Assembly (NCBI GenBank): GCA_041665505.1
Contig: JBAYIR010000005.1
Span: 225 to 64,224 of the forward strand
Length of the DNA: 64,000 nucleotides
Reading direction: 5' to 3'
DNA from: Patescibacteria group bacterium
Lineage (GTDB): Bacteria; Patescibacteriota; Patescibacteriia; UBA1558; GWA2-36-10
The stretch's first letter is position 1. Every line of letters begins with the position of its first letter. Both the position numbers and the translations under genes were made by a program. The notes beneath the pieces are model-generated. The model worked only from the letters and a program-made list of their open reading frames with translations, made no database searches and was not told the DNA's origin. Below are positions 4,492 to 62,622 of the stretch, piece after piece.

Positions 4492-6267
4492 ATGAAAAAA
4501 TTTATTCTTACTATTTTTGCTCTAGTTATTTTTGTCAGCCCCAATTTGATTTTAGCTGATAATGACAATACTATTGCCTATTTACAAGGGCAAAGTCAAA
4601 ATACTTGGATTAGCCAAGCTTTGGCAGCTGCGACGGCGGGTGGCATTGATATTAGCTATCTTGATTATCAAACTACAGATTTGATGGCGGCCTCTAAAAA
4701 TATTTTGACTTTAGCAGCCGTTGAATCACAAGACACAGATAATATTAGACAATTATTATCAGTTATAGAGTCTAGCAAGAATAATGGTCAATTTGGTTCA
4801 AGTGATTTACTCAATGATGATTTTTGGGTTTTAATGGCCTTGGCCTCGGTCAATCAATTAGCTGACACAGACAGTGCTAAAAATTTTATCTTAGACCATC
4901 AAAATACTGATGGAGGCTGGAGTTGGTCAGCTAGTGGCACTTCAGATAGCAATGACACAGCCGCAGCTATTATGGCTTTACTTGATTTAGGTTTAGATAG
5001 TAGCTCAACAGCGATTGTTAATGCTTTAGCTTATTTACAGACTAGCCAAAATGCCGATGGAGGTTTTGCTTATGATCTTGATAGTAGCTCCGATGGAGCT
5101 TCTACGGCTTGGGTTATTGCCGCTTTAAATAAAGCCAATATTTCGGCTAGCTCTTGGCAAAAAGATAATAATGATCCAATATCTTTTTTGGAAAGTTTAA
5201 GACAAGATAATGGTTCGTTTTTATGGATGCCTAGTGACGGGCAAGGTTCAACTATGGTGACAGCTTATGCCTTAGTAGCTTTAAGTGGCAAAGCTTATCC
5301 TATAAATTATATAGATATAGCAATAAATGAAGAAGTACTTGGTGGGCATAGTTTGCGTATTGAAGGACCAGCTGGCACTATTTGCCTAGCCAACAATTTA
5401 GAAGCTACTACAGTTTTGGAATTATTAGAGGCAGGTTCTAATGTTTGTGATTTTGAATATATTAGTCAAGATAGTGCTTATGGTGTTTATATTTCAGCTA
5501 TTGATGGAGTAAGTGCCTCTGGTATGGATGGTTGGCAATATTTTGTCGATTGGCAAGCTGGTATGTTGGCTGTGACAGATTTTATTTTAGAAGATAATCA
5601 AGAAGTGTTGTGGGCTTATGGAGGTTGGCCTTTTTATCCAGTTAAATTGGAAGTAAATGATAGTCATTTTGAGGTGGGAGAGACTTTGATGGTTGATTTT
5701 AAATATTACAACGGAGAGTCATGGTTGCCTTTGGCGGGAGCGGGCATAGTTTTTGGGGCAGAGACTTATTCTACTGATGCCAGTGGTCAATTTAGTTTGG
5801 TTCTGGATAGTGAGGGAATTTTCCCTATTTTTTCTCAGCCTAGTAGCACTTATGCCAGAAGCAATAAAGAATATATAGTAGTCGGTAGTGGCATTTCTCA
5901 AACAGTTGATTTATCAGTTAATGTAGAATCTGATGATGGTGGTGGAGTAGAAGAGGATGATGTGATTGCTTTTAATGTGGATAGATCAAGTATTAATTTT
6001 GGTACTTTAAATCCTGGTCAAGCCGTTGATACTATTGTATCTTTGTCCAATACCGGTAACGTTAATATCTATATCGAAGCTAGTGTTTTAGGGGATCAAG
6101 TTTTTACAGACTTTACCAGCTTAGATCAAGATCAATGGTCAGACTATAATCTTGATTTAGCCACAGGCTCCAGTGAAGCAGTAAATGTGGGGCTAGCTAT
6201 TCCTAGTAGTTTTTCGGCTTTAGGTCAAAAACAAGGCCAATTGATTTTTTGGGGTATTAATCAGTAA
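4492..6267 (+). CDS. Secreted alpha/alpha-toroid repeat protein with transcobalamin-beta-like (DUF4430-like) C-terminal region; putative extracellular cobalamin-binding protein
   Basis: Signal peptide, then repeated QNTDGGWSW / QNADGGFAY / RQDNGSF motifs (prenyltransferase/terpenoid-cyclase-like toroid repeats). Later GMDGWQYFVDWQ...DFILEDNQEVLWAYG resembles the GW.Y.VNG...D.v.W.Y pattern of the transcobalamin beta-domain. A riboswitch-like leader lies directly upstream. Confidence 0.5.
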   Translation: MKKFILTIFALVIFVSPNLILADNDNTIAYLQGQSQNTWISQALAAATAGGIDISYLDYQTTDLMAASKNILTLAAVESQDTDNIRQLLSVIESSKNNGQFGSSDLLNDDFWVLMALASVNQLADTDSAKNFILDHQNTDGGWSWSASGTSDSNDTAAAIMALLDLGLDSSSTAIVNALAYLQTSQNADGGFAYDLDSSSDGASTAWVIAALNKANISASSWQKDNNDPISFLESLRQDNGSFLWMPSDGQGSTMVTAYALVALSGKAYPINYIDIAINEEVLGGHSLRIEGPAGTICLANNLEATTVLELLEAGSNVCDFEYISQDSAYGVYISAIDGVSASGMDGWQYFVDWQAGMLAVTDFILEDNQEVLWAYGGWPFYPVKLEVNDSHFEVGETLMVDFKYYNGESWLPLAGAGIVFGAETYSTDASGQFSLVLDSEGIFPIFSQPSSTYARSNKEYIVVGSGISQTVDLSVNVESDDGGGVEEDDVIAFNVDRSSINFGTLNPGQAVDTIVSLSNTGNVNIYIEASVLGDQVFTDFTSLDQDQWSDYNLDLATGSSEAVNVGLAIPSSFSALGQKQGQLIFWGINQ

Positions 6268-11595: not shown

Positions 11596-12388
11596 AAATT
11601 ATTATTTTTTATTTATTTTTTTACTTCTACTAATCTTATTTTTTACTTTAAAAAATGATGAAAAATTAGCAGTGTATTTTCTCGACGTCGGTCAAGGCGA
11701 TGCTATTTTAATCAGAACGCCAGAGAATCAAAATATTTTAATAGACGGCGGGCCGGATAATAATTTACTTTATCAAGTAGCCAATCATTTACCTTGGTGG
11801 GAAAGGACTATTGATTATTTAGTTATTACGCATTATCACACAGATCATTATGTCGGTTTTTTGGATTTATTAGATAAATATAAGATAAAAAATATTTTAG
11901 TGACAGCCAATGAGCCAAATGATTTTTTATATTATCAGTGGTTAGAAAAATTAAAAGAAAAAAATCTAAAGCCCAGTGTGGTCAGGGCAGGGGAGAACTT
12001 TGTAGTCAGTCCAGACTTAAATTGGCGAGTGCTTTTGGCGGATAGTCAGCACGAAGATTTAAATGAAAATTCTATAGTTATAAAATTGACTTATAAAGAT
12101 ACAGATTTTTTGTTGATGGGCGATTTGCCAGTGGAAGGTGAGCAAAAATTATTAGCCAGCGATTTTGATCTTGATTCGGAAATACTCAAAGTTGGCCATC
12201 ACGGTAGTAAATATTCATCTTCGGAAGAATTTTTAAAAGCAGTTTCTCCAGAAATTTGTGTGATTCAATCAGGACTAGACAATAAATTTAATCATCCCCA
12301 TGAGGAAGCTATGACAAGATTAGAAAATATCGGCTGTGATATAAGAAATACACAAAATTTAGGGCTAATTAGTTTGTTTTTTGATTAG
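11582..12388 (+). CDS. ComEC-type metallo-beta-lactamase domain protein (separate ORF, own N-terminal TM anchor)
   Basis: LDVGQGDAILIRTP and HYHTDHYVGF (HxHxDH) motifs of the ComEC C-terminal MBL domain. Overlaps the preceding ORF by 14 nt in another frame. Confidence 0.8.
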   Translation: MNMNKNYYFLFIFLLLLILFFTLKNDEKLAVYFLDVGQGDAILIRTPENQNILIDGGPDNNLLYQVANHLPWWERTIDYLVITHYHTDHYVGFLDLLDKYKIKNILVTANEPNDFLYYQWLEKLKEKNLKPSVVRAGENFVVSPDLNWRVLLADSQHEDLNENSIVIKLTYKDTDFLLMGDLPVEGEQKLLASDFDLDSEILKVGHHGSKYSSSEEFLKAVSPEICVIQSGLDNKFNHPHEEAMTRLENIGCDIRNTQNLGLISLFFD

Positions 12389-12506
12389 TATTGTCAAATT
12401 TTTTGGATATTGCTAAAATTAAATAACTTGTGAGCGATGCTTACGAGTGTTGCTCACCTAACGGCGCACCATGTGCGCCAGGCCTCTAGCCGAGGGAGAG
12501 ATTCCT

Positions 12507-12647
12507 ATGAGAATCACCATCCATCCGACGTTGACCGCGCGAAGACGGAAGAACACCGAGCAGGCGACGCAGAAGGCCACGGCGACCAAGAAGGCCGCGA
12601 GGAAGAAGAACGCCAAGAAGGCGACGAGCAGCGAGGCGATCGTCTAG
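12507..12647 (+). CDS. Candidate small basic protein (46 aa) inside island 1
   Basis: SD GGGAGAG 6 nt upstream of ATG 12507 and ~89% GC3. The overlapping acidic frame 12437..12727 has ~50% GC3 and is probably not coding. Terminator hairpin 12676-12696 plus T-run follows. Confidence 0.35.
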   Translation: MRITIHPTLTARRRKNTEQATQKATATKKAARKKNAKKATSSEAIV

Positions 12648-12955
12648 GAGACGACTTCTCCGATGATGACGAGGGGCCCCCGGACACTACGGGGGCTCTA
12701 CTTTTTTTACTGCGATTTATTATTTAGTCTTATTTATAAATATTAGTTTGGATTGACTAGTTTTAGCCTCTTTGCTATCCTAAAATCAGCATTTCTCGCA
12801 TAGCTTGTTAGCTCGGTAAGGAGGAAGTCTCAAACAAAGAGCTCTCGAGTTTTCGGGAAATGTAGCCACAAGGCTTAACCAAGGAGGTTTTAACCGATCA
12901 TCACATGCCACTATGAGAGTGGCATTCACTCCGTCATGCATGGAGGTTTGTGGGC

Positions 12956-13480
12956 ATGAAGCCTATTCTTCGGTGGGCATGCCTCAGCGGTGTGCTGGCC
13001 ATTCTGGCTATCTTGACGCCCTGCCAGGGAGCCACCTGCCAGAATGACGAAGCGGTCATCATGACCGCGCTGAATATCGCCAGTTGCGACGGCACGAGCG
13101 CCATCGCTCTGAGCGAAGTCAAGCTGACGGCTAATCCCGCGGATGGGAACGTCGTCAAGGTCACCATCAACCACCTGATGAGCGGACAGACCGTGGCTAC
13201 TGCCGGTGATGCTATTTGGCTCTACTACGCGCCTTCCTACGACGCCCGGCAGTTCAGCGACGCTTACGCGACTACTGTCGTCCTGGACGCCAACATGATC
13301 GCTTCGCCGGCACTCTTCACCTACACGCACACGGCCCGGGGTGCCCTGATGCCCGGCGACCAGCTGGTGGTTCAGCCCACCTACAATACCTCCAATACCT
13401 CGGCCAGCTCGGCCCGTACGTGGAGCTCTGATGCCACGGGCATTGCCGACATTGACATGGGCGGTCAGCAGGCCGCCTAG
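12956..13480 (+). CDS. Secreted Ala/Thr/Ser-rich protein (high-GC codon usage) inside island 1
   Basis: GGAGG 9 nt upstream of ATG 12956, signal peptide MKPILRWACLSGVLAILAILTPCQGA, TAG stop. The 8-bp inverted repeat ATGCCACT/AGTGGCAT at 12905-12925 lies just upstream. Confidence 0.5.
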   Translation: MKPILRWACLSGVLAILAILTPCQGATCQNDEAVIMTALNIASCDGTSAIALSEVKLTANPADGNVVKVTINHLMSGQTVATAGDAIWLYYAPSYDARQFSDAYATTVVLDANMIASPALFTYTHTARGALMPGDQLVVQPTYNTSNTSASSARTWSSDATGIADIDMGGQQAA

Positions 13481-13595
13481 TTCGATCTCCCGGTTCAGAG
13501 GACATACAGATCTGTGAACACCACACCGCTTTCCAAGCGGCAACAGTTGGTTTGTATCCATCTGTAAAGTCCTTCGGGTCAAGAAATGGCCCATT

Positions 13596-13660
13596 CCCGG
13601 CAAGAAGACACTATCTGGTTTCGGCCAGAGAAGACTTCTTGCCGGGTCTTCTTTTTGTCT
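13596..13660 (+). terminator. Intrinsic terminator closing island 1
   Basis: 12-bp perfect stem CCCGGCAAGAAG / CTTCTTGCCGGG followed by TCTTCTTTTTGTCTTG. Confidence 0.7.
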
Positions 13661-16186: not shown

Positions 16187-16332
16187 ACACAATCTGGTGA
16201 TTTCACCATCCGTACCATTGACATTACACAGCTTGAAACAGGCTGTAGCATATTCCTCCACTAGGGAGGTATCCGCGCTTCTTGATTTCGGTCAAGAGGC
16301 ATAGTTCATGGCTCAATCATGGAGGTTTTTCC

Positions 16333-16434
16333 ATGCCCAACTGCCGCGGACCCACGCATCGCCGTCTCTCGAGTTTTCACAAGGACAACATCTTCACCAC
16401 CGACCGCGTCGCGGCCGCCAGCCCCCAGGCCTGA
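16333..16434 (+). CDS. Candidate small ORF (33 aa) in island 2
   Basis: GGAGG 8 nt upstream of ATG 16333, ~85% GC3, TGA stop. The overlapping ORF-track frame 16319..16504 has lower GC3. Confidence 0.25.
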   Translation: MPNCRGPTHRRLSSFHKDNIFTTDRVAAASPQA

Positions 16435-16666
16435 CCCGGGCGCCGGCGTCGTGATCGTGCTCCGGGAGAAATCCTGGGGCGTCCATCCACTGTTGGGTAG
16501 ATAAGGAGGCATTCGTCTATGCTTTCCTGGCTTCTGCCCGACGATGACCGTGTTGTCGAAGCCCTCGTCTGGGTCAGACAGCACAGAGTGGACCGCACCG
16601 TAAAGGCCGGTGTATGGACCACGCGTCATCGTTTTCTGACACCTGAACTGACAAGGAGAAACCAAA

Positions 16667-16780
16667 GTGTTCTTCCTCCTACCCGAGTACCGCGGGAAGG
16701 TCGCCGAAGGCGACGACCCTCACGCGGAGCGACGCGGGTTCCGCAGCGTTGTGGACGCTGTATGGGCCCATGATGAGTAG
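16667..16780 (+). CDS. Candidate small ORF (37 aa) in island 2
   Basis: AAGGAGAAACC upstream of GTG 16667, ~75% GC3, TAG stop. A further candidate ATG 16519 is preceded by TAAGGAGG, but its extent is ambiguous. Confidence 0.2.
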   Translation: MFFLLPEYRGKVAEGDDPHAERRGFRSVVDAVWAHDE

Positions 16781-17366
16781 CCTATTGCTGCTCATGAGTT
16801 CAGCCCTGGTTTTTTCCTAGGGAACGTTTGGTGCTTTGCGTCGAGGCCAGACTCGGCCCCTTTCTCTGAGAGGGCGCCGCCGGCGGTACGACGGATTGCT
16901 ACACAGCTAAAGACTTGCGCATCCCTGCGTAGCGCGCGTGCCTACGCTGCACCTGTTTCCTAGCTCGGCCCTCGGGCCCCGATGTCATGCGGACGCTTCC
17001 AGCGCCCGCGCAGACTGGGGCTCGAGGGCCTCTCATCAACACGGCCGCCAGCCGGCCTCCTTCAAGTGTTCCTCGTATTTTTTGATATGAGGTTGTCCCC
17101 GCGGGACATAATTCGCAGGATGCCCGGTGTGGTTCGTGTTGTTCTTCCCCTCGGGGGGCGCCTTCGTTTGCCGACTGCTCAGTAGCAGCCGACAATTCGA
17201 ATGGCGCTTCCCGGGGGCCTATTTTTTTTATTAAAAATTTTTATAAACAGTCCAAATCCTTGACTTTAATATTTTATTATGCTATTTTATTGGGGACTTT
17301 TGTCGCGTAATAATAATTAATTTTACGGACAGAATAGTCGCATTTTTTTATTTTTATTAACAAAAT

Positions 17367-18369: not shown

Positions 18370-20466
18370 ATGGAGCGACACCCTTTAGAAAAAGTAAGAA
18401 ATATTGGAATTATTGCGCATATTGATGCTGGTAAAACTACTGTTACCGAGCGTATTCTTTTTTATACTGGGAAAAAACATAAAATTGGCGAAGTCCATGA
18501 AGGTAAAGCCGAGATGGATTGGATGGAGCAAGAAAAAGAGCGCGGTATTACTATTACCTCAGCCGCTACAACTTGTTTTTGGGATTTACCAGATTGGTTG
18601 GGTGGAGGTAAAGCCAATATTAATATTATTGATACACCAGGTCACGTAGATTTTACTGTCGAAGTAGAAAGATCACTAAGAGTGCTTGATGGTGGCGTGA
18701 TTGTTTTTGATGGAGTAGCTGGTGTAGAACCACAATCAGAAACTGTTTGGAGACAAGCTGATAAATATCATGTGCCAAGATTGGCTTTTATAAATAAGAT
18801 GGATAGAATGGGTGCAGATTTCTATTTTGATATGGATACTATCCACGAGCGCTTGACCAAAAAAGCCTATCCTATGCAATTACCAATTGGTGCCGCTGAA
18901 ACATTTACTGGTATTATCAATGTCTTAGAGCGTGAAGCTTGGTACTATCTTGATGAAGATGGTAAACAATATGAAAAGCGTGAGGTTCCTGATGACATGA
19001 AAGATAAAGTAGAAAAATATCGAGCTGAACTGATTGAAGCAATTGTGGAAAATGATGAAACTTTGATGGAAAAATATCTTGGTGGGCAGGAGCCAGATTT
19101 AGTAGCCATCAAAAAAGTATTAAGACAAGCAGTAATTGATAATAAACTAGTACCAATTTTTTGTGGTAGTGCTTTGAAAAATAAAGGCGTCCAATTTTTA
19201 TTAGACGCAGTAGTATCTTATCTACCATCACCAATTGATGTGCCACCGATTGAAGGTAATGAACCAAGAAATGAAGAAAATATTATCCAAGTCAAGATTG
19301 GTGATAGTGAACCATTTGTTGGTTTGGCTTTTAAAGTAGCTACTGATCCTTATGTTGGCCGATTAACTTTTGTGCGTGTTTATTCAGGTACTTTAAAGGC
19401 TGGTTCTTATGTTTATAATGCTAATACAGAAAAGAAAGAAAGAATTGGTCGAATACTGCGAATGCACGCCAATGCCAGAGAAGAATTAACTGAAATTTTT
19501 AGTGGTGATATTGTGGCCGTAGTTGGTTTAAAAGACACTACCACTGGTCACACTATTTGTGATCCAGCTCGTCCAGTAGTTTTGGAAAGTATGGAATTCC
19601 CAGACCCAGTTATACACGTGGCGGTAGAACCAAAAACCAAGCAAGATCAAGAAAAAATGGGTATGGCTTTGGCCAAATTGACTGAAGAAGATCCTACCTT
19701 TACTGTCAGAAGTGATGAGGAGACAAATCAAACTATTATTGGTGGTATGGGAGAGCTTCACTTAGATATTATCGTTGATCGTATGAAACGTGAGTTTGGT
19801 GTGGAAGCTAATGTCGGTGCTCCTCAGGTAGCTTATAAAGAAACTATTACTGGTAGTGCTGAAGCTGAAGGAAAATATGTCAAGCAATCTGGTGGACGTG
19901 GTCAATATGGTCATTGTTGGTTGCGCTTGGAAGCTCAAGAGCCTGGTAAAGGATTTGAGTTTATAGAACAAATTAAAGGTGGTTCTATTCCTAAAGAGTT
20001 TATTGCGCCGATTGAAAAAGGTGTTAAAGAAACTATGAACAATGGTATTTTGGCTGGTTATCAGATTCAAGATGTCAAAGTGACTGTTTATGATGGATCA
20101 TATCATGATGTTGACTCTTCAGAAGCCGCTTTTAAAGTAGCTGGCTCTATGGCTTTTAAAGCTGCTTTTAGGCTAGCCAATCCAGTAATACTAGAACCAA
20201 TTATGAAAGTAGAAGCAGTTACTCCAGAACAATATATGGGCGATGTGATTGGTGATCTTAATTCCAAGAGAGGACAAATATCAAATATGACTGACAGAGC
20301 TGGGGCTAAGGTAATTAATGCTGAAGTGCCACTAGCTGAAATGTTTGGCTATGCTACTGCTCTTAGATCTATGACTCAAGGTAGAGCTAGTTATTCTATG
20401 GAGTTTGCTAAATATCAAGAAGTGCCTAGAAATGTCGCTGAAGAAATAATGAAAAAAAAGGCTTAA
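18370..20466 (+). CDS. fusA: Elongation factor G
   Basis: [10 protein letters not shown]1 motif and DTPGH. 698 aa. Confidence 0.95.
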
Positions 20467-20482
20467 ATTAATATTTATCTAT

Positions 20483-20513
20483 ACAGTCGCGTCTGACGCG
20501 GCTGTATTTTTTT
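20483..20513 (+). terminator. Intrinsic terminator after fusA
   Basis: ACAGTCGCGtctgaCGCGGCTGT followed by ATTTTTTTTG. Its core is nearly identical to the tuf terminator. Confidence 0.7.
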
Positions 20514-20572
20514 GTTTAAAAAAAGAAGTCGCCCGCCACTGCTGCTGCAGGGCGGGCGACGAAAGCGTCAGC

Positions 20573-20803
20573 CTATGTCGGCTGATGAAGCCTCTTTTCC
20601 AGGCTTCGGACGCGAGAACGCGTGATGCCTTTGGTCTTCAGCTGAGACCAGCTCAGAGCACGGTTCTTCAGCGCTCTTTTGATCATCATGATCATGGTAA
20701 AGAGTGTCAGTTCCGTAGGATCTTCATCCTCGAAGATCAACTGAGCCTTAGTGAGGAGCTCCTCGCTGGTCATATTAAAGTCCAGGTTCACAGCTTCGGA
20801 CAT
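20573..20803 (-). CDS. Hypothetical 76-aa protein (high-GC codon usage), island 3 cassette A
   Basis: AAAGGAG 7 nt upstream of ATG (reverse strand), TAG stop. Terminator GTCGCCCGCC...GCGGGCGAC plus T-run lies at 20527-20566 on the reverse strand. Confidence 0.45.
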   Translation of the reverse strand: MSEAVNLDFNMTSEELLTKAQLIFEDEDPTELTLFTMIMMIKRALKNRALSWSQLKTKGITRSRVRSLEKRLHQPT

Positions 20804-20858
20804 CAACTACTCCTTTTCGACTGTTACATCCTTGTGCAGGGGTGAACGAGGCAACATA

Positions 20859-20890
20859 ATAACATATATTTTAAGTTTAGTCAATCCAGC
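20859..20890 (-). repeat. Direct repeat copy 1 (27-nt exact match with copy 2); encodes reverse-strand promoter TTGACT-17-TATTAT
   Basis: Forward-strand ATAACATATATTTTAAGTTTAGTCAAT(C)CAG. Sits 43 nt upstream of the cassette A start. Confidence 0.7.
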
Positions 20891-20971
20891 TCTTAGTAAG
20901 GAGCTAGATTAATATTCAAAGGGGGCGCTTCTGGCGAAGCGCCCCCTCGGTGTCGGCTGACCGATGTCGGA

Positions 20972-21418
20972 TCAGACGAAGAAGTGTATGATCTTGATGT
21001 CCAGACCGTGATGATAATAGTATTCGCCGTTCATGTCGATGCCGACAACCGAGCCATCGGCAATCTTGTCGGGCAGATCCAACTGCATGGTCTTCATCAG
21101 GATTTCATGAGCCAGTTCGCTATGGATGCTGAACATCTTGATCTTCTGGAGAATCTCGAGATGACGATCGTACTCGCTCTGGCAGGTGCCAGCACAGTGG
21201 CCACGGCACTGCTCCGGCGGACAGAGCTCCTGGTGTTCGCGTTCCAGCTCCTTGAGGTCCTGCACGATTCCGTAGAACAAGCCCCATGCTCGTTTGACGT
21301 CTTTACTCGCTTTGATGCCGAGCAGCCGTCGTGGGTCGAGGATCTCCATCTTGGGCCAAGTGACCTTATCCAGATCGATCCCTTGGGCTCGATCGTTGAG
21401 TTCGCTGAGCAGGTTCAT
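20972..21418 (-). CDS. Hypothetical 148-aa Cys-containing protein (CPPEQCRGHCAGTC), island 3 cassette B
   Basis: AGGAGG 6 nt upstream of ATG (reverse strand), TGA stop. Terminator AGGGGGCGCTTCgccaGAAGCGCCCCCT lies at 20920-20950. The 5'UTR carries the 10-bp inverted repeat TAACGGTGTA / TACACCGTTA. Confidence 0.45.
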   Translation of the reverse strand: MNLLSELNDRAQGIDLDKVTWPKMEILDPRRLLGIKASKDVKRAWGLFYGIVQDLKELEREHQELCPPEQCRGHCAGTCQSEYDRHLEILQKIKMFSIHSELAHEILMKTMQLDLPDKIADGSVVGIDMNGEYYYHHGLDIKIIHFFV

Positions 21419-21593
21419 CTTACTCCTCCTGGATTCCCTTGCTAGGGAATGAAATAACGGTGTAACACAAATACCACATTAGTTAGTACACCGTTAGGCT
21501 AACTAATGTTTTTCAAAACACAGAATTAAAGAATATTATTATTCTTCAAGTCTATATTTTAAAATTTATAAACAACATTTCAGATTTATGTTT

Positions 21594-21625
21594 ATAACAT
21601 ATATTTTAAGTTTAGTCAATTCAGT
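21594..21625 (-). repeat. Direct repeat copy 2; reverse-strand promoter TTGACT-17-TATAAA for cassette B
   Basis: ATAACATATATTTTAAGTTTAGTCAAT(T)CAG. 31 of 32 nt identical to copy 1. Confidence 0.7.
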
Positions 21626-22074
21626 TGCGTCTGACCTGATTGGCCTAAAAATAAAACTCCAGATAAAAATCTGAAGTTTTATTTTATATCCCTCCTAAAT
21701 TTATCACTAGTTGCTAAACTTGGGAGGGGGCCGGTCTTTGTCAGACATTGATCGGCCTTGTGTGTGGGGTATGTGGGCAGATGTAGGCGGAGTAGCGGAG
21801 TTGATGGATAAACCCTTTTTTCCAAGGCATAAATCTGGAGCAGAGCTACCTAGCTTTTGGCCGTAGCCAGCTGAGGTCAGATAAATATACTGAAATTATT
21901 GAGTATAGACCCAATAGAATCTAGCTTTTTATCTGTTCTCTTTACTCCAAATTTATACCTTGGAAGGATGGATATTTAAAGAACTTTTTATGTTAATGTG
22001 GTAGTATAGCATATATTTATATTTTTGTCAAGCATATAAGCTCTGCTATTTGATGTTTTGATATAGCAATTTTC

Positions 22075-22102
22075 TTGACAAAAGACCTGTTTTTGCTATA
22101 AG
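22075..22102 (+). promoter_or_regulatory. sigma70-like promoter
   Basis: TTGACA, 16-nt spacer, extended -10 TGcTATAAG. Confidence 0.5.
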
Positions 22103-22137
22103 ATATGGGGACTTAAGTAGCTTTTAATCATAAAAAT

Positions 22138-22512
22138 ATGTCAAATTATAAGCAAATGGACAAAGTTTTAGATTTAGCAGCTAAAACTGGCGATAAAGTG
22201 ATAGTTTTATCTGATCATCATGATCCTTATGTGATAATGACTGTTAAAGAATATGAAGCTTTATTACATGGTCCATCTTCAGTCAAGGATTTATCAGAAG
22301 ATGAATTGCTTAGTAAAATCAACCGTGATATAGCAGTTTGGAAAGCTTCTAAAGACGATTTAGATGATTATAGTTTAGATGATTTCAAGGTAGATACTTT
22401 ACGTAAAGATTTAAAAAACGTAGAAAAGCCTAGGGAAGATGCAGACAAAATTACTGTTGATAAGTCTATAGTGCCAGAAGAAGATAGATACTATATTGAG
22501 CCTGTAGATTAA
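22138..22512 (+). CDS. Hypothetical acidic protein
   Basis: 124 aa with no recognisable motif. Sits between island 3 and tuf. Confidence 0.5.
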   Translation: MSNYKQMDKVLDLAAKTGDKVIVLSDHHDPYVIMTVKEYEALLHGPSSVKDLSEDELLSKINRDIAVWKASKDDLDDYSLDDFKVDTLRKDLKNVEKPREDADKITVDKSIVPEEDRYYIEPVD

Positions 22513-22569
22513 AATTTTAGCTAATTTTAGCTAAAAGAGCTTAAAAAAGGATTTGGCACTCTTAGAGGC

Positions 22570-22598
22570 TTGCCAAAAGTCAAAAACAGTGCTATAAT
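22570..22598 (+). promoter_or_regulatory. Strong promoter for tuf
   Basis: TTGCCA, 17-nt spacer, extended -10 TGCTATAAT. A perfect palindrome TGTGTTTTAAAAACACACA follows at the predicted start. Confidence 0.65.
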
Positions 22599-22709
22599 CT
22601 TTGTGTTTTAAAAACACACAAAATTAATAAATAATAATTAATATTTTAAGATAGCTGGATCACAAACCCCTGAATTTTGAGGGGGGCTATCACAAGGAGA
22701 AAAAATCAA

Positions 22710-23897
22710 ATGGCAGATATTTTCAAACGTGAAAAGCCACACGTTAATGTGGGCACTATTGGTCACGTCGACCACGGTAAAACTACTTTGACAGCGGCTA
22801 TTTTAAAAGTTTTAAATGCTTCAGGTGGAATAGCTCAACAAAAGGATGTTGATCAAATTGACAATGCACCAGAAGAGAGAGAGCGTGGTATTACTATTGC
22901 TACAGCTCATGTTGAGTATGAATCAACAGCTAGACACTATGCACACGTTGACTGTCCAGGTCATGCTGACTATGTCAAAAACATGATTACTGGTGCAGCT
23001 CAAATGGATGGTGCAATACTAGTAGTATCAGCTGCTGATGGTCCAATGCCTCAAACTAGAGAACATATTCTATTAGCTCGCCAAGTTGGTGTGCCTTATA
23101 TAGTAGTTTTTCTAAATAAGATGGACCAAGTAGATGATCCAGAATTGGTAGATTTAGTAGAAGAAGAAATTAGAGATTTATTGAAGAAATATGAATTTCC
23201 TGGTGATACCACTCCAATTATTCGTGGTAGTGCTATCAAAGCTTTGGAAAATCCAAGTGGTGAGGATGCTAAACCTATTTTAGATTTAGTAAAAGCTTTG
23301 GATGATTATATTCCAGAACCAAAACGTGATACAGATAAACCATTTTTGATGCCAATTGAAGATATTTTTTCAATTGAAGGTCGTGGTACTGTAGTCACTG
23401 GTCGTATTGATAGAGGTATTATAAAATTGAATGAAGAAGTAGAATTGGTTGGTATCAATGACACCAGTAAGACTGTAGTCACTGGTATTGAGATGTTTAA
23501 CAAACAACTAGAAGAAGGTAGAGCTGGTGATAATGCTGGTTTACTTCTTCGTGGTACCAAGAAAGAAGATGTTGAACGTGGTCAAGTATTGGCCAAACCT
23601 GGTTCTATTACTCCTCATACAGAATTTGAAGCTGAAACTTATATCTTAAGTAAAGAAGAAGGTGGTCGTCATACCCCATTTTTCAAAGGATATAAACCAC
23701 AGTTTTATATTCGTACTACTGATGTTACTGGTGAAGTAGAACTTTCAGAAGGTGCAGAAATGGTTATGCCTGGTGATACAGTTAATTTGAAGATCAAATT
23801 AATATCCCCAGTAGCGCTTGAAGAAAAATCAAGATTTGCTATTCGTGAAGGTGGCCGTACTGTTGGTGCTGGTGTAGTAACCAAAATTATAAAGTAA
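22710..23897 (+). CDS. tuf: Elongation factor Tu
   Basis: [26 protein letters not shown]. Start taken at ATG 22710, which has AAGGAG upstream, rather than the ORF-track start at 22677. Confidence 0.95.
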
Positions 23898-61385: not shown

Positions 61386-61452
61386 TTTTTGGGTAAATAA
61401 AGAAGCGCCTCACGGGTGGACTGATGTCCCGCCGCGAGGCGCCCAAGACGAT

Positions 61453-61878
61453 TCATACAACATCGCCGCTGTCTTCATATCGTACGCCATCGCTATCGAG
61501 GCGTACCTCAATGCTGGTGTCAAACACGCTGCAGAGGGTTTGGCACAACTCTACGACTTCTTGGCGATGCATTTCGCCGTTGAATTCAAAGACCCAGTGG
61601 TCTTCGGTAGCACTTCGCCGGCTGTTCTCGAACCAGATGACACCGATGAGCAGGTGCATGTGTTGTCCCAGCAGCAGACGCAGCAGGCCCCGGCGAGGCT
61701 TCTTGGTGGGGTTCCATTTGAGAATCCCCAGTGAATCTTCGGGTGACAGGGGAGCTTTGAGTTTACTCCCGCCACATGATGCCAACTCCCAGCCTTGGTT
61801 CTTGAGCCATCGCCCAACTCGGATCGAGATGTGGACATCTGACACCTTAACTTCAGGAGTGTTCACGTCTAACCTCAC
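61453..61878 (-). CDS. Candidate 141-aa protein in island 4 (GTG start, weak SD)
   Basis: Reverse frame with plausible amino-acid composition, GC3-biased codons and a TGA stop. Other overlapping frames look like high-GC artefacts. Confidence 0.3.
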   Translation of the reverse strand: MRLDVNTPEVKVSDVHISIRVGRWLKNQGWELASCGGSKLKAPLSPEDSLGILKWNPTKKPRRGLLRLLLGQHMHLLIGVIWFENSRRSATEDHWVFEFNGEMHRQEVVELCQTLCSVFDTSIEVRLDSDGVRYEDSGDVV

Positions 61879-61934
61879 TTGCTAGGGGTGTACATTCATT
61901 GCCGCACTACTTTTGTAGTAGTCTTGACCTTGTG

Positions 61935-62489
61935 TCAGGCCAGACCGCGTCGCAGCTTGGCTGCGAAGTCCTTGGCGTAGTCTTCCTTGACCTGGAAGTC
62001 GGCCTGAGCTTCCGGCAGCAGACAGCGGAACTGTCCGATCACGTGCTGCTCCAAGTAGCTCAGCGACTCTTCCACGGTCTTGCCCATCGCCGCCCCACTG
62101 GCGAAGGTCTTGACGATCCAGAAGGTCTCGCCACCCTCCAAGAGGTGGGCATCGTGGACGATGTCGCCTTCGATGGTCAGGATGTCGTCGGGATTGGTGT
62201 CCTTCTGAGAATCCCAGGCAGTCCGGACAATGCGAGCAATGTCGCCCTCGCACACCTGCTGCGAACGCAGGAAAGTGATGGTGGCTTCTTCGCCGCCGGG
62301 CAGATGAATAACGCCATGGAAGTACAGCGCGACCCGGATCAGCTTCAGACTGGCCTCAGGGTAGTTCCGGGTCAGTTTCACGGAGATGTCCCAGATGCGG
62401 TCGATGTGGCACATGTTGTGCATCACGTCTTTGGCTTCGTAGTAGGGAGCTACGAAGTTGGAGACAGAGGAGAGCTTGAGTTTATCCAT
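61935..62489 (-). CDS. Hypothetical 184-aa protein in island 4
   Basis: ATG 62489 with AAAGG 9 nt upstream, TGA stop, GC3-biased. Contains MHNMCHIDRIW...YFHGVIH, His-rich and possibly metal-binding. The ORF-track start at 62558 runs into the promoter. Confidence 0.5.
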   Translation of the reverse strand: MDKLKLSSVSNFVAPYYEAKDVMHNMCHIDRIWDISVKLTRNYPEASLKLIRVALYFHGVIHLPGGEEATITFLRSQQVCEGDIARIVRTAWDSQKDTNPDDILTIEGDIVHDAHLLEGGETFWIVKTFASGAAMGKTVEESLSYLEQHVIGQFRCLLPEAQADFQVKEDYAKDFAAKLRRGLA

Positions 62490-62529
62490 CGTGTGGCCTT
62501 TCGGTTGGGGTACATAGGGCGGACTATAT

Positions 62530-62558
62530 ATAATAGCATATATGTTAGTTTTTGTCAA
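62530..62558 (-). promoter_or_regulatory. Consensus sigma70 promoter (reverse strand) driving the island 4 genes
   Basis: Reverse strand reads TTGACA, 17-nt spacer AAAACTAACATATATGC, then TATTAT. Lies in AT-rich DNA flanking the island. Confidence 0.65.
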
Positions 62559-62622
62559 TAAGAATCAATAATAACATATTTGACTTTTAAGGCTCTAAAT
62601 GGTATGGTTTTTTAAGTAATTT

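Follow-up and report, generated by a model that had tools for sequence, protein, structure and literature searches.

Why does a sharply GC-rich patch lie between fusA and tuf in a genome that is otherwise AT-rich? The window analysed here, i.e. the whole stretch of 64,000 nucleotides (nt) from contig JBAYIR010000005.1 of a Patescibacteria group bacterium (assembly GCA_041665505.1, positions 225 to 64,224 of the forward strand), belongs to a Komeilibacteria-like genome and is AT-rich overall (about 33% GC), but its composition jumps to high GC in a few places. One such patch, at 20520-21450, falls in the 2.2 kb between the stop codon of fusA (20466) and the start codon of tuf (22677), as placed by the list of open reading frames (ORFs), and holds two reverse-strand orphan genes that we call A (76 amino acids (aa), 20573-20803) and B (148 aa, 20972-21418). 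An earlier inspection, hereafter the sequence-only reading, had explained the patch as a GC-rich island of promoter-plus-cassette units, built by recombination, that split the fusA-tuf junction. Comparison with related genomes leads us to a different answer, to which we give a probability of roughly 0.65: the region is a resident row of self-contained units, in which translation of B is gated by its leader RNA and the third codon positions of the genes were recoded towards GC in place.

The arrangement of the same region in relatives carries the first part of this answer. The comparison set comprised 10-12 independent related loci from metagenome-assembled genomes (MAGs) of Komeilibacteria/Parcubacteria and from metagenomes, found via homologues of B and via genomes carrying p124, the gene next to tuf; one further contig, L112, duplicates L013. 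Wherever both flanks are on a contig, fusA and tuf are separated. The slot between them contains p124 beside tuf, B, a conserved non-coding unit whose transcription leads away from p124 and, frequently, also A beside fusA. B lies between fusA and p124 in L011, L012, L013, L014, L017 and L077, and the slot of L005 reads p124, a 66-aa gene, B, an A-like gene and the 3' end of fusA. Elongation factor G (EF-G) of the relatives is 85-93% identical to that of the window, B 26-35%. In L077 the slot contains two B paralogues as AT-rich as the genome that carries them, with a GC content at third codon positions (GC3) of 0.22 and 0.28. Since relatives have the same slot and B is AT-rich in L077, the separation of fusA and tuf is ancestral to the clade and not due to the arrival of GC-rich DNA. 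The sequence-only reading had itself stated that fusA and tuf separated in relatives without any island would speak against it, and L077 presents essentially this. An empty site, in which the fusA terminator would be followed directly by the non-coding unit or p124 with a single CAGTYGCGTCTGAC, was found in 0 of 10 related loci. These comparisons show what appears to be an old resident locus of Komeilibacteria-type Patescibacteria and not an inserted island.

An insertion of a foreign GC-rich array, assembled by recombination from promoter-plus-cassette units, nevertheless has several features on its side: the jump in GC content is sharp, every unit is autonomous, a 14-nt direct repeat flanks units A and B, the order of modules varies among lineages and different relatives carry different extra genes in the slot. 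We hold it to be very improbable, as all relatives have these genes in this slot, fully AT-rich versions included, the shift is confined to GC3 with second positions (GC2) remaining host-like, and the promoters and leaders are AT-rich and conserved as orthologues. No recombinase, transposase, integrase or tRNA gene was found near the locus in the ORF list and tRNA scan, and phage collections gave no match (promoter pattern and B against IMG/VR; B and A by tblastn against INPHARED). The direct repeat is imperfect (CAGTCGCGTCTGAC at 20484-20497 and CAGTTGCGTCTGAC at 21622-21635) and brackets units A and B exactly. The motif GCGTCTGAC occurs at two places only in the 64 kb, against 0.06 expected, namely within the intrinsic terminator of fusA (20481-20507, forward strand) and at 21627, and in L013 it forms a complete terminator hairpin at the corresponding place. 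The 14-nt repeats are thus better read as two related terminators, which they probably are, rather than as an integration scar; a target-site duplication or att site was considered and dropped on account of the L013 hairpin. What survives of the proposed modular array is its modularity: the units are autonomous, and in L007 and L017 B adjoins p124 with the non-coding RNA located after B, so that the units have evidently been rearranged as blocks in this lineage.

The slot of relatives also contains a gene of the cytidine/dCMP deaminase family and a YfbR-like HD 5'-deoxynucleotidase, both of nucleotide-salvage type (L011 2693-3220, forward strand; L013 371-946, reverse strand).

A mosaic composition could likewise come from an assembly that joined AT-rich and GC-rich organisms, an explanation that we regard as extremely improbable. 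The JGI 3300037810 and Logan SRR6484324 assemblies, made from separate samples, have the same fusA and tuf flanks around the locus; one of the two contigs is 100% identical to the window and the other is identical over the whole locus. The junctions are therefore the same in two independent assemblies, the region is not an assembly artefact, and the combination of an AT-rich leader with a GC-rich ORF recurs in diverged relatives from other samples. The JGI contig (L001) equals the window over 20216-23386 and then has 26 mismatches in the next 430 nt (23387-23816, inside tuf), a sharp mosaic boundary that reflects either strain recombination or a strain-mixed assembly.

The nature of the GC shift carries the second part of the answer. 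GC contents at the first (GC1), second and third codon positions are 0.60, 0.30 and 0.72 for B and 0.48, 0.36 and 0.66 for A; fusA, tuf and p124 of the window have a GC3 of 0.18-0.22, with GC1 and GC2 similar to those of A and B. The GC-richness of A and B is hence almost entirely a synonymous third-position shift, and the promoters and leaders a few bases from the start codons stay AT-rich. Among B orthologues, GC3 forms a series from 0.22-0.28 in L077 through 0.38 in L013 and 0.49-0.58 in L009, L012 and L014 to 0.72-0.95 in the window, L003, L004, L005, L007, L008, L011 and L017, while GC2 lies at 0.23-0.38 and the flanking genes have a GC3 of 0.18-0.31. Had the genes been imported from a GC-rich donor, GC2 and the GC content of the regulatory DNA would be higher as well, and a graded series at a fixed site points to a process acting in place. 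Neither mark of such a donor was found: GC is not raised at all codon positions, and homologues in GC-rich genomes did not appear, as all homologues found either share the Patescibacteria setting of the window or come from short contigs on which the leaders are AT-rich. Most likely, then, the GC3 shift arose within a resident gene family and not by import.

Two processes are candidates for the shift, GC-biased gene conversion, which acts only at sites free to vary, and selection on mRNA. The non-coding stretch at 21760-21818, which is moderately GC-rich as judged by eye and not by computation, leans slightly towards a regional process, and it may be a decayed ORF. It is quite unlikely, in our judgement, that the recoding is adaptive in the sense of making mRNAs unlike the AT-rich transcriptome, so that they would resist an A/U-specific endoribonuclease or be translated selectively under stress, with the leader of B and the RNA of the non-coding unit acting as undescribed sensor RNAs for a Patescibacteria-specific set of 'shielded' transcripts. 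The logic would be comparable to that of ACA-less mRNAs under MazF. Were there such a programme, the GC3-rich orphan units at about 12.4-13.6, 16.3-17.2 and 61.4-62.6 kb would belong to it. These are the other GC-rich patches of like build in the window (12437-13650 and 16290-17200 on the forward strand, 61400-62560 on the reverse strand), which have AT-rich consensus promoters (near 12385, 12755 and 16158 on the forward strand; 62558-62530 on the reverse strand), strong Shine-Dalgarno (SD) sequences, GC3-rich orphan ORFs and GC hairpins; five ORFs tried from them gave no Pfam match. Whatever its cause, the recoding is unusual. The graded series offers a natural test case for GC-biased gene conversion versus selection on mRNA, and it implies that an abrupt rise in GC content within a streamlined, AT-rich genome is no proof of foreign DNA, so that GC-based callers of islands or horizontal gene transfer would misread this locus.

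How the units are built is best followed along the reverse strand. The anatomy supports A and B as autonomous units, each with its own putative promoter, SD sequence, ORF and terminator; the 76-aa and 148-aa ORFs, their SDs and the perfect GC hairpins behind both genes were already recognised in the sequence-only reading. Unit B would start at promoter P_B (21591-21620), with a -35 box TTGACT at 21619-21614 and a -10 box TATAAA at 21596-21591, followed by an AT-rich leader of about 170 nt downstream of the -10 box (21419-21590) with the SD AGGAGGAG at 21423-21430, by gene B, which contains CPPEQCRGHCAGTC, and by a terminator hairpin with a perfect 12-bp GC stem (20920-20947). Unit A has promoter P_A (20856-20901; -35 TTGACT at 20884-20879, TG-extended -10 TATTAT at 20861-20856) with an upstream element CCTTACTAAGAGCTGG at 20886-20901, a leader of about 45 nt (20804-20855) with the conserved motifs GCCTCGTTCA (20843-20852) and CACAAGGATGT (20826-20836) and the SD AAGGAG (20810-20815), and behind gene A a terminator (20518-20560) made of a perfect 10-bp GC stem (20528-20537 with 20551-20560), a 13-nt loop and then TTCTTTTTTT. 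A GC-rich hairpin followed by a T-run, as in intrinsic terminators, is thus present in unit A, and in unit B the stem is of this kind but the T-run after it is weak, merely TTTGAATATT. A consensus terminator scanner skipped both, the loop of unit A being over its limit and the tail of unit B having too few T.

An exact 10-mer TGTCGGCTGA (TCAGCCGACA on the reverse strand) occurs at 20576-20585 and 20951-20960, once per unit, at the 3' end: in A it overlaps the final codons, and in B it stands just past the stop codon, where L003 keeps it. It could be due to chance or be a shared 3' element.

The two promoters share an exact 27-mer, ATAACATATATTTTAAGTTTAGTCAAT, at 20859-20885 and 21594-21620, as the sequence-only reading had reported together with the boxes on the reverse strand (TTGACT-17-TATTAT at 20884-20856 with TG upstream, TTGACT-17-TATAAA at 21619-21591). 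No further copy exists in the 64 kb, even at up to 3 mismatches, none is expected and 0 of 100 shuffles matched. With its 3' extension, which is indeed present, the repeat is identical at 30/31 nt in place of the 31/32 nt counted before, a trivial difference. A third copy, 71% identical, is P_C (22003-22031; TTGACA-17-TATACT with TG), the promoter of the non-coding unit, which is almost invariant among all relatives. Scored as predicted sigma-70 extended -10 promoters, P_A reaches 10/12 with TG and P_C 11/12 with TG, and P_B has the same TG. The pattern TTGACW-N14-TGnTAWWWT occurs four times in the window against 0 expected, once before rpsL and once at 62530-62558 before another GC-rich patch. 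Hence the suggestion that this promoter is special to GC-rich cargo does not stand. These counts show the 27-mer to be the -35 to -10 core of the genome's generic sigma-70-type extended -10 promoter, which is predicted to be strong. The copy at 62530-62558 closely resembles the 27-mer.

The exact 27-nt identity of P_A and P_B goes beyond the promoter consensus. In the window both have the derived spacer TAAACTTAAAATATATG, unlike the consensus spacer of the orthologous promoters in relatives, and in L009, L011 and L013 the orthologous P_B and P_A spacers differ from each other. P_B of the window and of L003 are identical at 49/49 nt, P_A of L003 differs at 3/27 positions, and the repeat of L003 reaches about 16 nt further upstream, through CCTTACTAAGA. 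In L004 two near-identical promoters, of a sequence different from those in the window, surround the B gene. Behind each promoter the leaders stay unit-specific, with ...CATAAATCTGAAA for B and GCCTCGTTCA...CACAAGGATGT for A, and because each promoter keeps its own orthologous leader, the units were not made by copying one promoter-plus-cassette block. Of the proposed promoter duplication there remains that the P_A and P_B cores are true copies with a common derived spacer; the block copy does not hold, as orthologous P_B and P_A in relatives keep distinct leaders and are alike only generically. We infer that P_A and P_B were homogenised in the lineage of the window and L003 by a short-tract duplication or gene conversion of about 30-45 nt.

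The main rival to this reading is that selection has kept the 27-31 nt identical, one regulator, possibly A itself, binding between the -35 and -10 boxes and switching both units. The identity does include the spacer, which RNA polymerase barely reads, P_B is unchanged at 49/49 nt between the window and L003 in spite of a synonymous divergence (dS) of 0.7-0.9, the near-identical pair in L004 fits, and A has a weak match to a PHROG annotated as transcriptional regulator (E = 0.075). Such an operator is unlikely in our view, given that the spacers differ in L009, L011 and L013, all of which have B and then A (the contig of L009 showing only the promoter and leader of A), that the P_A copy of L003 has already diverged at 3/27 positions, that no clear palindrome was found in the 27-mer and that A has no match to DNA-binding families in Pfam, NCBIfam or PDB profiles.

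What gates B, in the resident locus that we favour, would be its leader. P_B and the leader of B agree with those of L003 at 186 of 203 positions (92%), while dS between the two sequences is 0.7-0.9; the leader thus evolves about 10 times more slowly than synonymous sites. It is partly alignable to L008, L011 and L013, in which B is about 26-30% identical, and folds with z = -5.0 relative to shuffles. Two stems are interleaved, stem A of 11 bp (21499-21509 with 21476-21486) and stem B (21487-21496 with 21455-21464), the latter being the perfect inverted repeat TAACGGTGTA/TACACCGTTA noticed in the sequence-only reading, and a conserved motif ATTCTTTAATTCTGTGTTTT precedes them at 21515-21534. 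The arms follow in the order 5'A-5'B-3'A-3'B in 8 sequences, which is the topology of a pseudoknot. Pairs were counted by script on a hand-curated, structure-guided alignment of these 8 sequences: stem A is 91% paired, with double changes covarying in 11/11 pairs and a sequence wholly different between lineages, and stem B, in which a GGUG/CACC core is kept and 5 pairs covary, is 87% paired, while controls slid along the alignment gave 21-61% pairing overall and 21-45% for stem A. The order and loops of an H-type pseudoknot, a candidate translational operator, fit 8/8 sequences (L1 of 0-4 nt between the 5' arms, L3 of 8-15 nt before the last arm). In 6/8 sequences a short hairpin abuts the SD: that of the window (TTCCCT...AGGGAA) is TTCCCTagcaAGGGAA at 21434-21449, where it had been described before, and that of L008 is TCCCAA...TTGGGA. 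Strong conservation and covariation of this leader lend weight to the earlier suggestion that translation of cassette B is regulated.

A second structured RNA stands upstream, in the part of the slot that the sequence-only reading had passed over; it listed neither p124 nor the third, diverged promoter copy P_C (22031-22003, reverse strand) nor the RNA behind it. The core of this RNA, RNA C, spans about 165 nt (21819-21988, reverse strand). Its nucleotide identity within the clade is 70-79%, and nine independent related loci have it (L007, L011, L012, L013, L014, L015, L016, L018 and L077). RNAalifold predicts a long closing helix, P1, and a three-way junction. In the alignment of ten sequences, 95.5% of the cells are paired and 26 of 51 pairs have compensatory changes, against 13.2 +/- 2.1 in shuffles (0/500 reach the observed count) and 2-8 in slid controls; the whole unit C of the window folds with z = -8.9. 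Within P1, UUGGAG and CUCCAG are invariant and the neighbouring pairs covary, which hints at a sequence-specific role, possibly as a mimic of an SD/anti-SD pairing. A scan of metagenomes with TTGGAGNNNNGAGAACAGAY was too loose, with 2 (L077 and L112) of the 120 matches listed being real by nhmmer; RNA C is spread at least as widely as these.

Neither RNA corresponds to an Rfam family. There was no gathering-level match in the 64 kb, the leader of B and unit C included, and a search of 20400-22150 at E <= 10 (4227 families) gave only noise far below threshold, mostly on terminator hairpins; the ohsC and RatA matches were set aside as such noise. RNase P RNA, transfer-messenger RNA, 6S RNA and signal recognition particle RNA were considered for RNA C and rejected, there being no ARAGORN or Rfam match and none of their conserved motifs on reading. 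The window has no tRNA gene and no gathering-level Rfam match although the ribosomal region from rpsL to S10 is included, and known models of ribosomal leaders apparently detect nothing in this lineage.

What follows RNA C differs among relatives. In L012 and L077 it stands directly before the SD of B. ORFs for hydrophobic peptides of 29-50 aa come after it in L011, L013, L014 and L016. In the window and L015 a pair of hairpins takes that place, the second one sequestering an AGGAGG that lacks an ORF, and a terminator comes last. In the window these hairpins form the 'C3-prime' module (21690-21757, reverse strand; the second pairs CCCTCC at 21716-21728 with GGAGGG at 21690-21702), and the terminator of unit C (21648-21685) is a 17-bp AT-rich hairpin usable in both directions. 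One peptide family of 29-38 aa, with an end of the form ...DFSW(I/M)S.E.Q...GI..., is located between RNA C and B in L004 (108-224), L014 (about 5640-5730, reverse strand) and L018 (4462-4563, reverse strand); L011, L013 and L016 have instead hydrophobic peptides of 44-50 aa with a two-helix look. The simplest history would make RNA C the ancestral leader of B. Peptide genes, terminators and, under its own promoter, a second leader would have come between the two later, and in the window the peptide gene would then have been lost.

Comparison of the proteins shows A and B to be, by their substitution patterns, real genes under purifying selection. Between the window and L003, B has a nonsynonymous divergence (dN) of 0.22, a dS of 0.7-0.9 and a dN/dS of 0.25-0.32, and the first 55 codons of A have a dN/dS of about 0.2-0.3; dS across A and B is 0.4-0.9. 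NCBI lists B as a hypothetical protein from a Patescibacteria MAG. Its family is very small, with one relative at 66% identity and five at about 30% among 1.8 billion representatives. A word-indexed search with A returned itself alone; orthologues are present in L003, L011 and L013, and in L005 as an N-terminal domain. Residues W21, P22, G46, H62, C66 and H86 of B are invariant, and the extra cysteines of its CPPEQCRGHCAGTC motif are not kept across the family. AlphaFold with 7 homologues predicts for B a long helical hairpin with a small beta sheet (predicted local distance difference test, pLDDT, 81), and with B alone the model was not usable (pLDDT 40). In L009 (540-640) the usual C-terminal tail of B (…I.II.V…LADLF…) lies in another frame after an early stop; this frameshift is either real or a sequencing error.

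Nothing significant was found for A, B or p124 in Pfam, PHROGs, PADLOC or NCBIfam; PADLOC gave 0 families at E <= 1 for these three and the L005 neighbours, and PDB profile searches with A and B returned nothing but noise, in the form of designed proteins and syntaxin coiled coils (E > 0.06). The only hint for A is PHROG 1373, at the E value given above. A helix-turn-helix in the C-terminal half of A, read by eye, was not supported, Pfam, NCBIfam and PDB profiles being empty. p124 (124 aa, 22138-22512, forward strand) is AT-rich, is kept in every relative at 62-85% identity and has its own promoter at 22075-22104, back-to-back with P_C; its N-terminus shows a weak likeness to Phd/YefM (E = 0.0011, short of the Pfam cut-off) and its acidic tail ends in EEDRYYIEPVD. 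Apart from p124, A and B, the ORFs at 16-25 kb are ribosomal and translation genes.

From these parts a mode of working can be proposed. The reverse-strand row would read P_C, RNA C and terminator, then P_B, leader, B and terminator, then P_A, leader, A and terminator, with p124 on the forward strand, and the three constitutively strong promoters would fire independently. Output of B would be set post-transcriptionally, the pseudoknot-type fold and the SD hairpin gating access of the ribosome. Candidate triggers are B itself, by analogy with the leaders of ribosomal proteins, a different protein and a small ligand. RNA C would fill the leader role in the simplest relatives, directly before B.

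As for function, a clade-specific factor linked to translation and a conflict or stress module appear about equally likely. The former is suggested by the fixed position between two elongation-factor genes, the latter by fast evolution, hydrophobic peptides, a Phd/YefM-like neighbour and the deaminase and nucleotidase accumulating in the slot. A more specific proposal, a toxin-antitoxin or defence module whose SD-sequestering leaders silence the effectors (B and the peptides of 29-50 aa) while p124 and A act as antidote or regulator, seems to us doubtful. It would account for the small hydrophobic peptides that relatives encode behind an SD-sequestering hairpin, for the weak likeness of p124 to Phd/YefM, for the fast evolution of B (26-35% identity where EF-G has 85-92%) and for a variable slot in which relatives also have a cytidine deaminase and a YfbR-like nucleotidase. 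However, PADLOC, Pfam, NCBIfam and PHROGs gave no significant match, the genes are not co-transcribed pairs, the selection on B is purifying and not diversifying, and the locus is fixed across the clade beside core translation genes, where a lineage-specific housekeeping or ribosome-linked role fits equally well.

Several points weigh against the resident, leader-gated and recoded locus that we prefer. The leader alignment was curated by hand and leans towards structure, the core of stem B hardly varies, and stems A and B may exclude each other instead of forming one pseudoknot. The promoters, the terminators and the function of the leader are predictions from sequence. The identical P_A and P_B spacer could have come from selection for a shared operator and not from conversion, and the 14-nt direct repeat around A and B, taken alone, would also suit an integration event. 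Neither A nor B has a recognisable homologue whose function is known, which leaves the role of the locus unconstrained; the GC3 shift may have come from either candidate process, and of the GC-rich patches of the window it is the one between fusA and tuf that was traced in relatives. Finally, the comparison covers about 12 independent related loci, most of them on short contigs.

Among known systems, the nearest parallels to the leader of B are the autogenous leaders of ribosomal proteins that place a pseudoknot at the ribosome binding site, such as those of E. coli rpsO/S15, the alpha operon/S4 and L20. The leader of B resembles them in its pseudoknot topology a few tens of nt before the SD, its str/S10 neighbourhood and its being more conserved than the ORF, but B is neither a ribosomal protein nor equipped with a known RNA-binding domain, its leader has no Rfam match, and binding of B to the leader is conjectural. 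RNA C recalls riboswitch leaders built on three-way junctions, with a long P1, a junction with two arms, invariant unpaired nucleotides, strong covariation and a place before the SD in L012 and L077; unlike these, it matches no Rfam family at E <= 10 and in the window is followed by a terminator and no ORF, so that here it would be a free-standing RNA. In type I toxin-antitoxin systems (hok/sok, tisB/istR) one finds the likes of the hydrophobic peptide ORFs of relatives behind a long, SD-sequestering structured leader, but the window has lost the peptide ORF and retains hairpins only, and no antisense RNA was identified. A type II pair is not what A and B form, since a terminator and a promoter lie between them and neither has a Pfam, NCBIfam or PADLOC domain, and PADLOC recognised no known anti-phage defence system.

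Comparison with mobile arrays leads away from mobility. Integron arrays also consist of small ORFs in series at a fixed chromosomal site with content that varies among relatives. Integron cassettes are generally promoterless, whereas those of this locus have their own promoters and terminators; the per-cassette repeat is a promoter core only and not attC, the hairpins at the boundaries are unrelated perfect GC terminators, and there is no integrase among the ORFs at 16-25 kb. Horizontal islands recognised by GC content share the abrupt shift and the orphan genes, but here only synonymous ORF positions are shifted, the orthologues at one fixed site form a graded series, and the regulatory DNA is host-like; the presence/absence polymorphism of a mobile island is not seen either, all spanning loci carrying the locus.

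Our literature searches turned up neither this locus nor GC3-recoded genes in Patescibacteria. To our knowledge, almost no regulatory RNAs have been characterised in this phylum, whose members cannot yet be grown alone, and two well-supported structured-RNA candidates, attached to orphan proteins that the clade keeps between elongation-factor genes, hence make the locus a handle on lineage-specific regulation in Patescibacteria. Set beside the systems above, the architecture of promoter, structured leader, small ORF and terminator is ordinary, and it is the components that are new: two protein families without an annotated relative and two RNA structures without an Rfam match. The locus would thus belong with leader-RNA-controlled accessory genes, and what makes it valuable is the pair of RNA candidates together with the graded synonymous GC shift rather than mobility.

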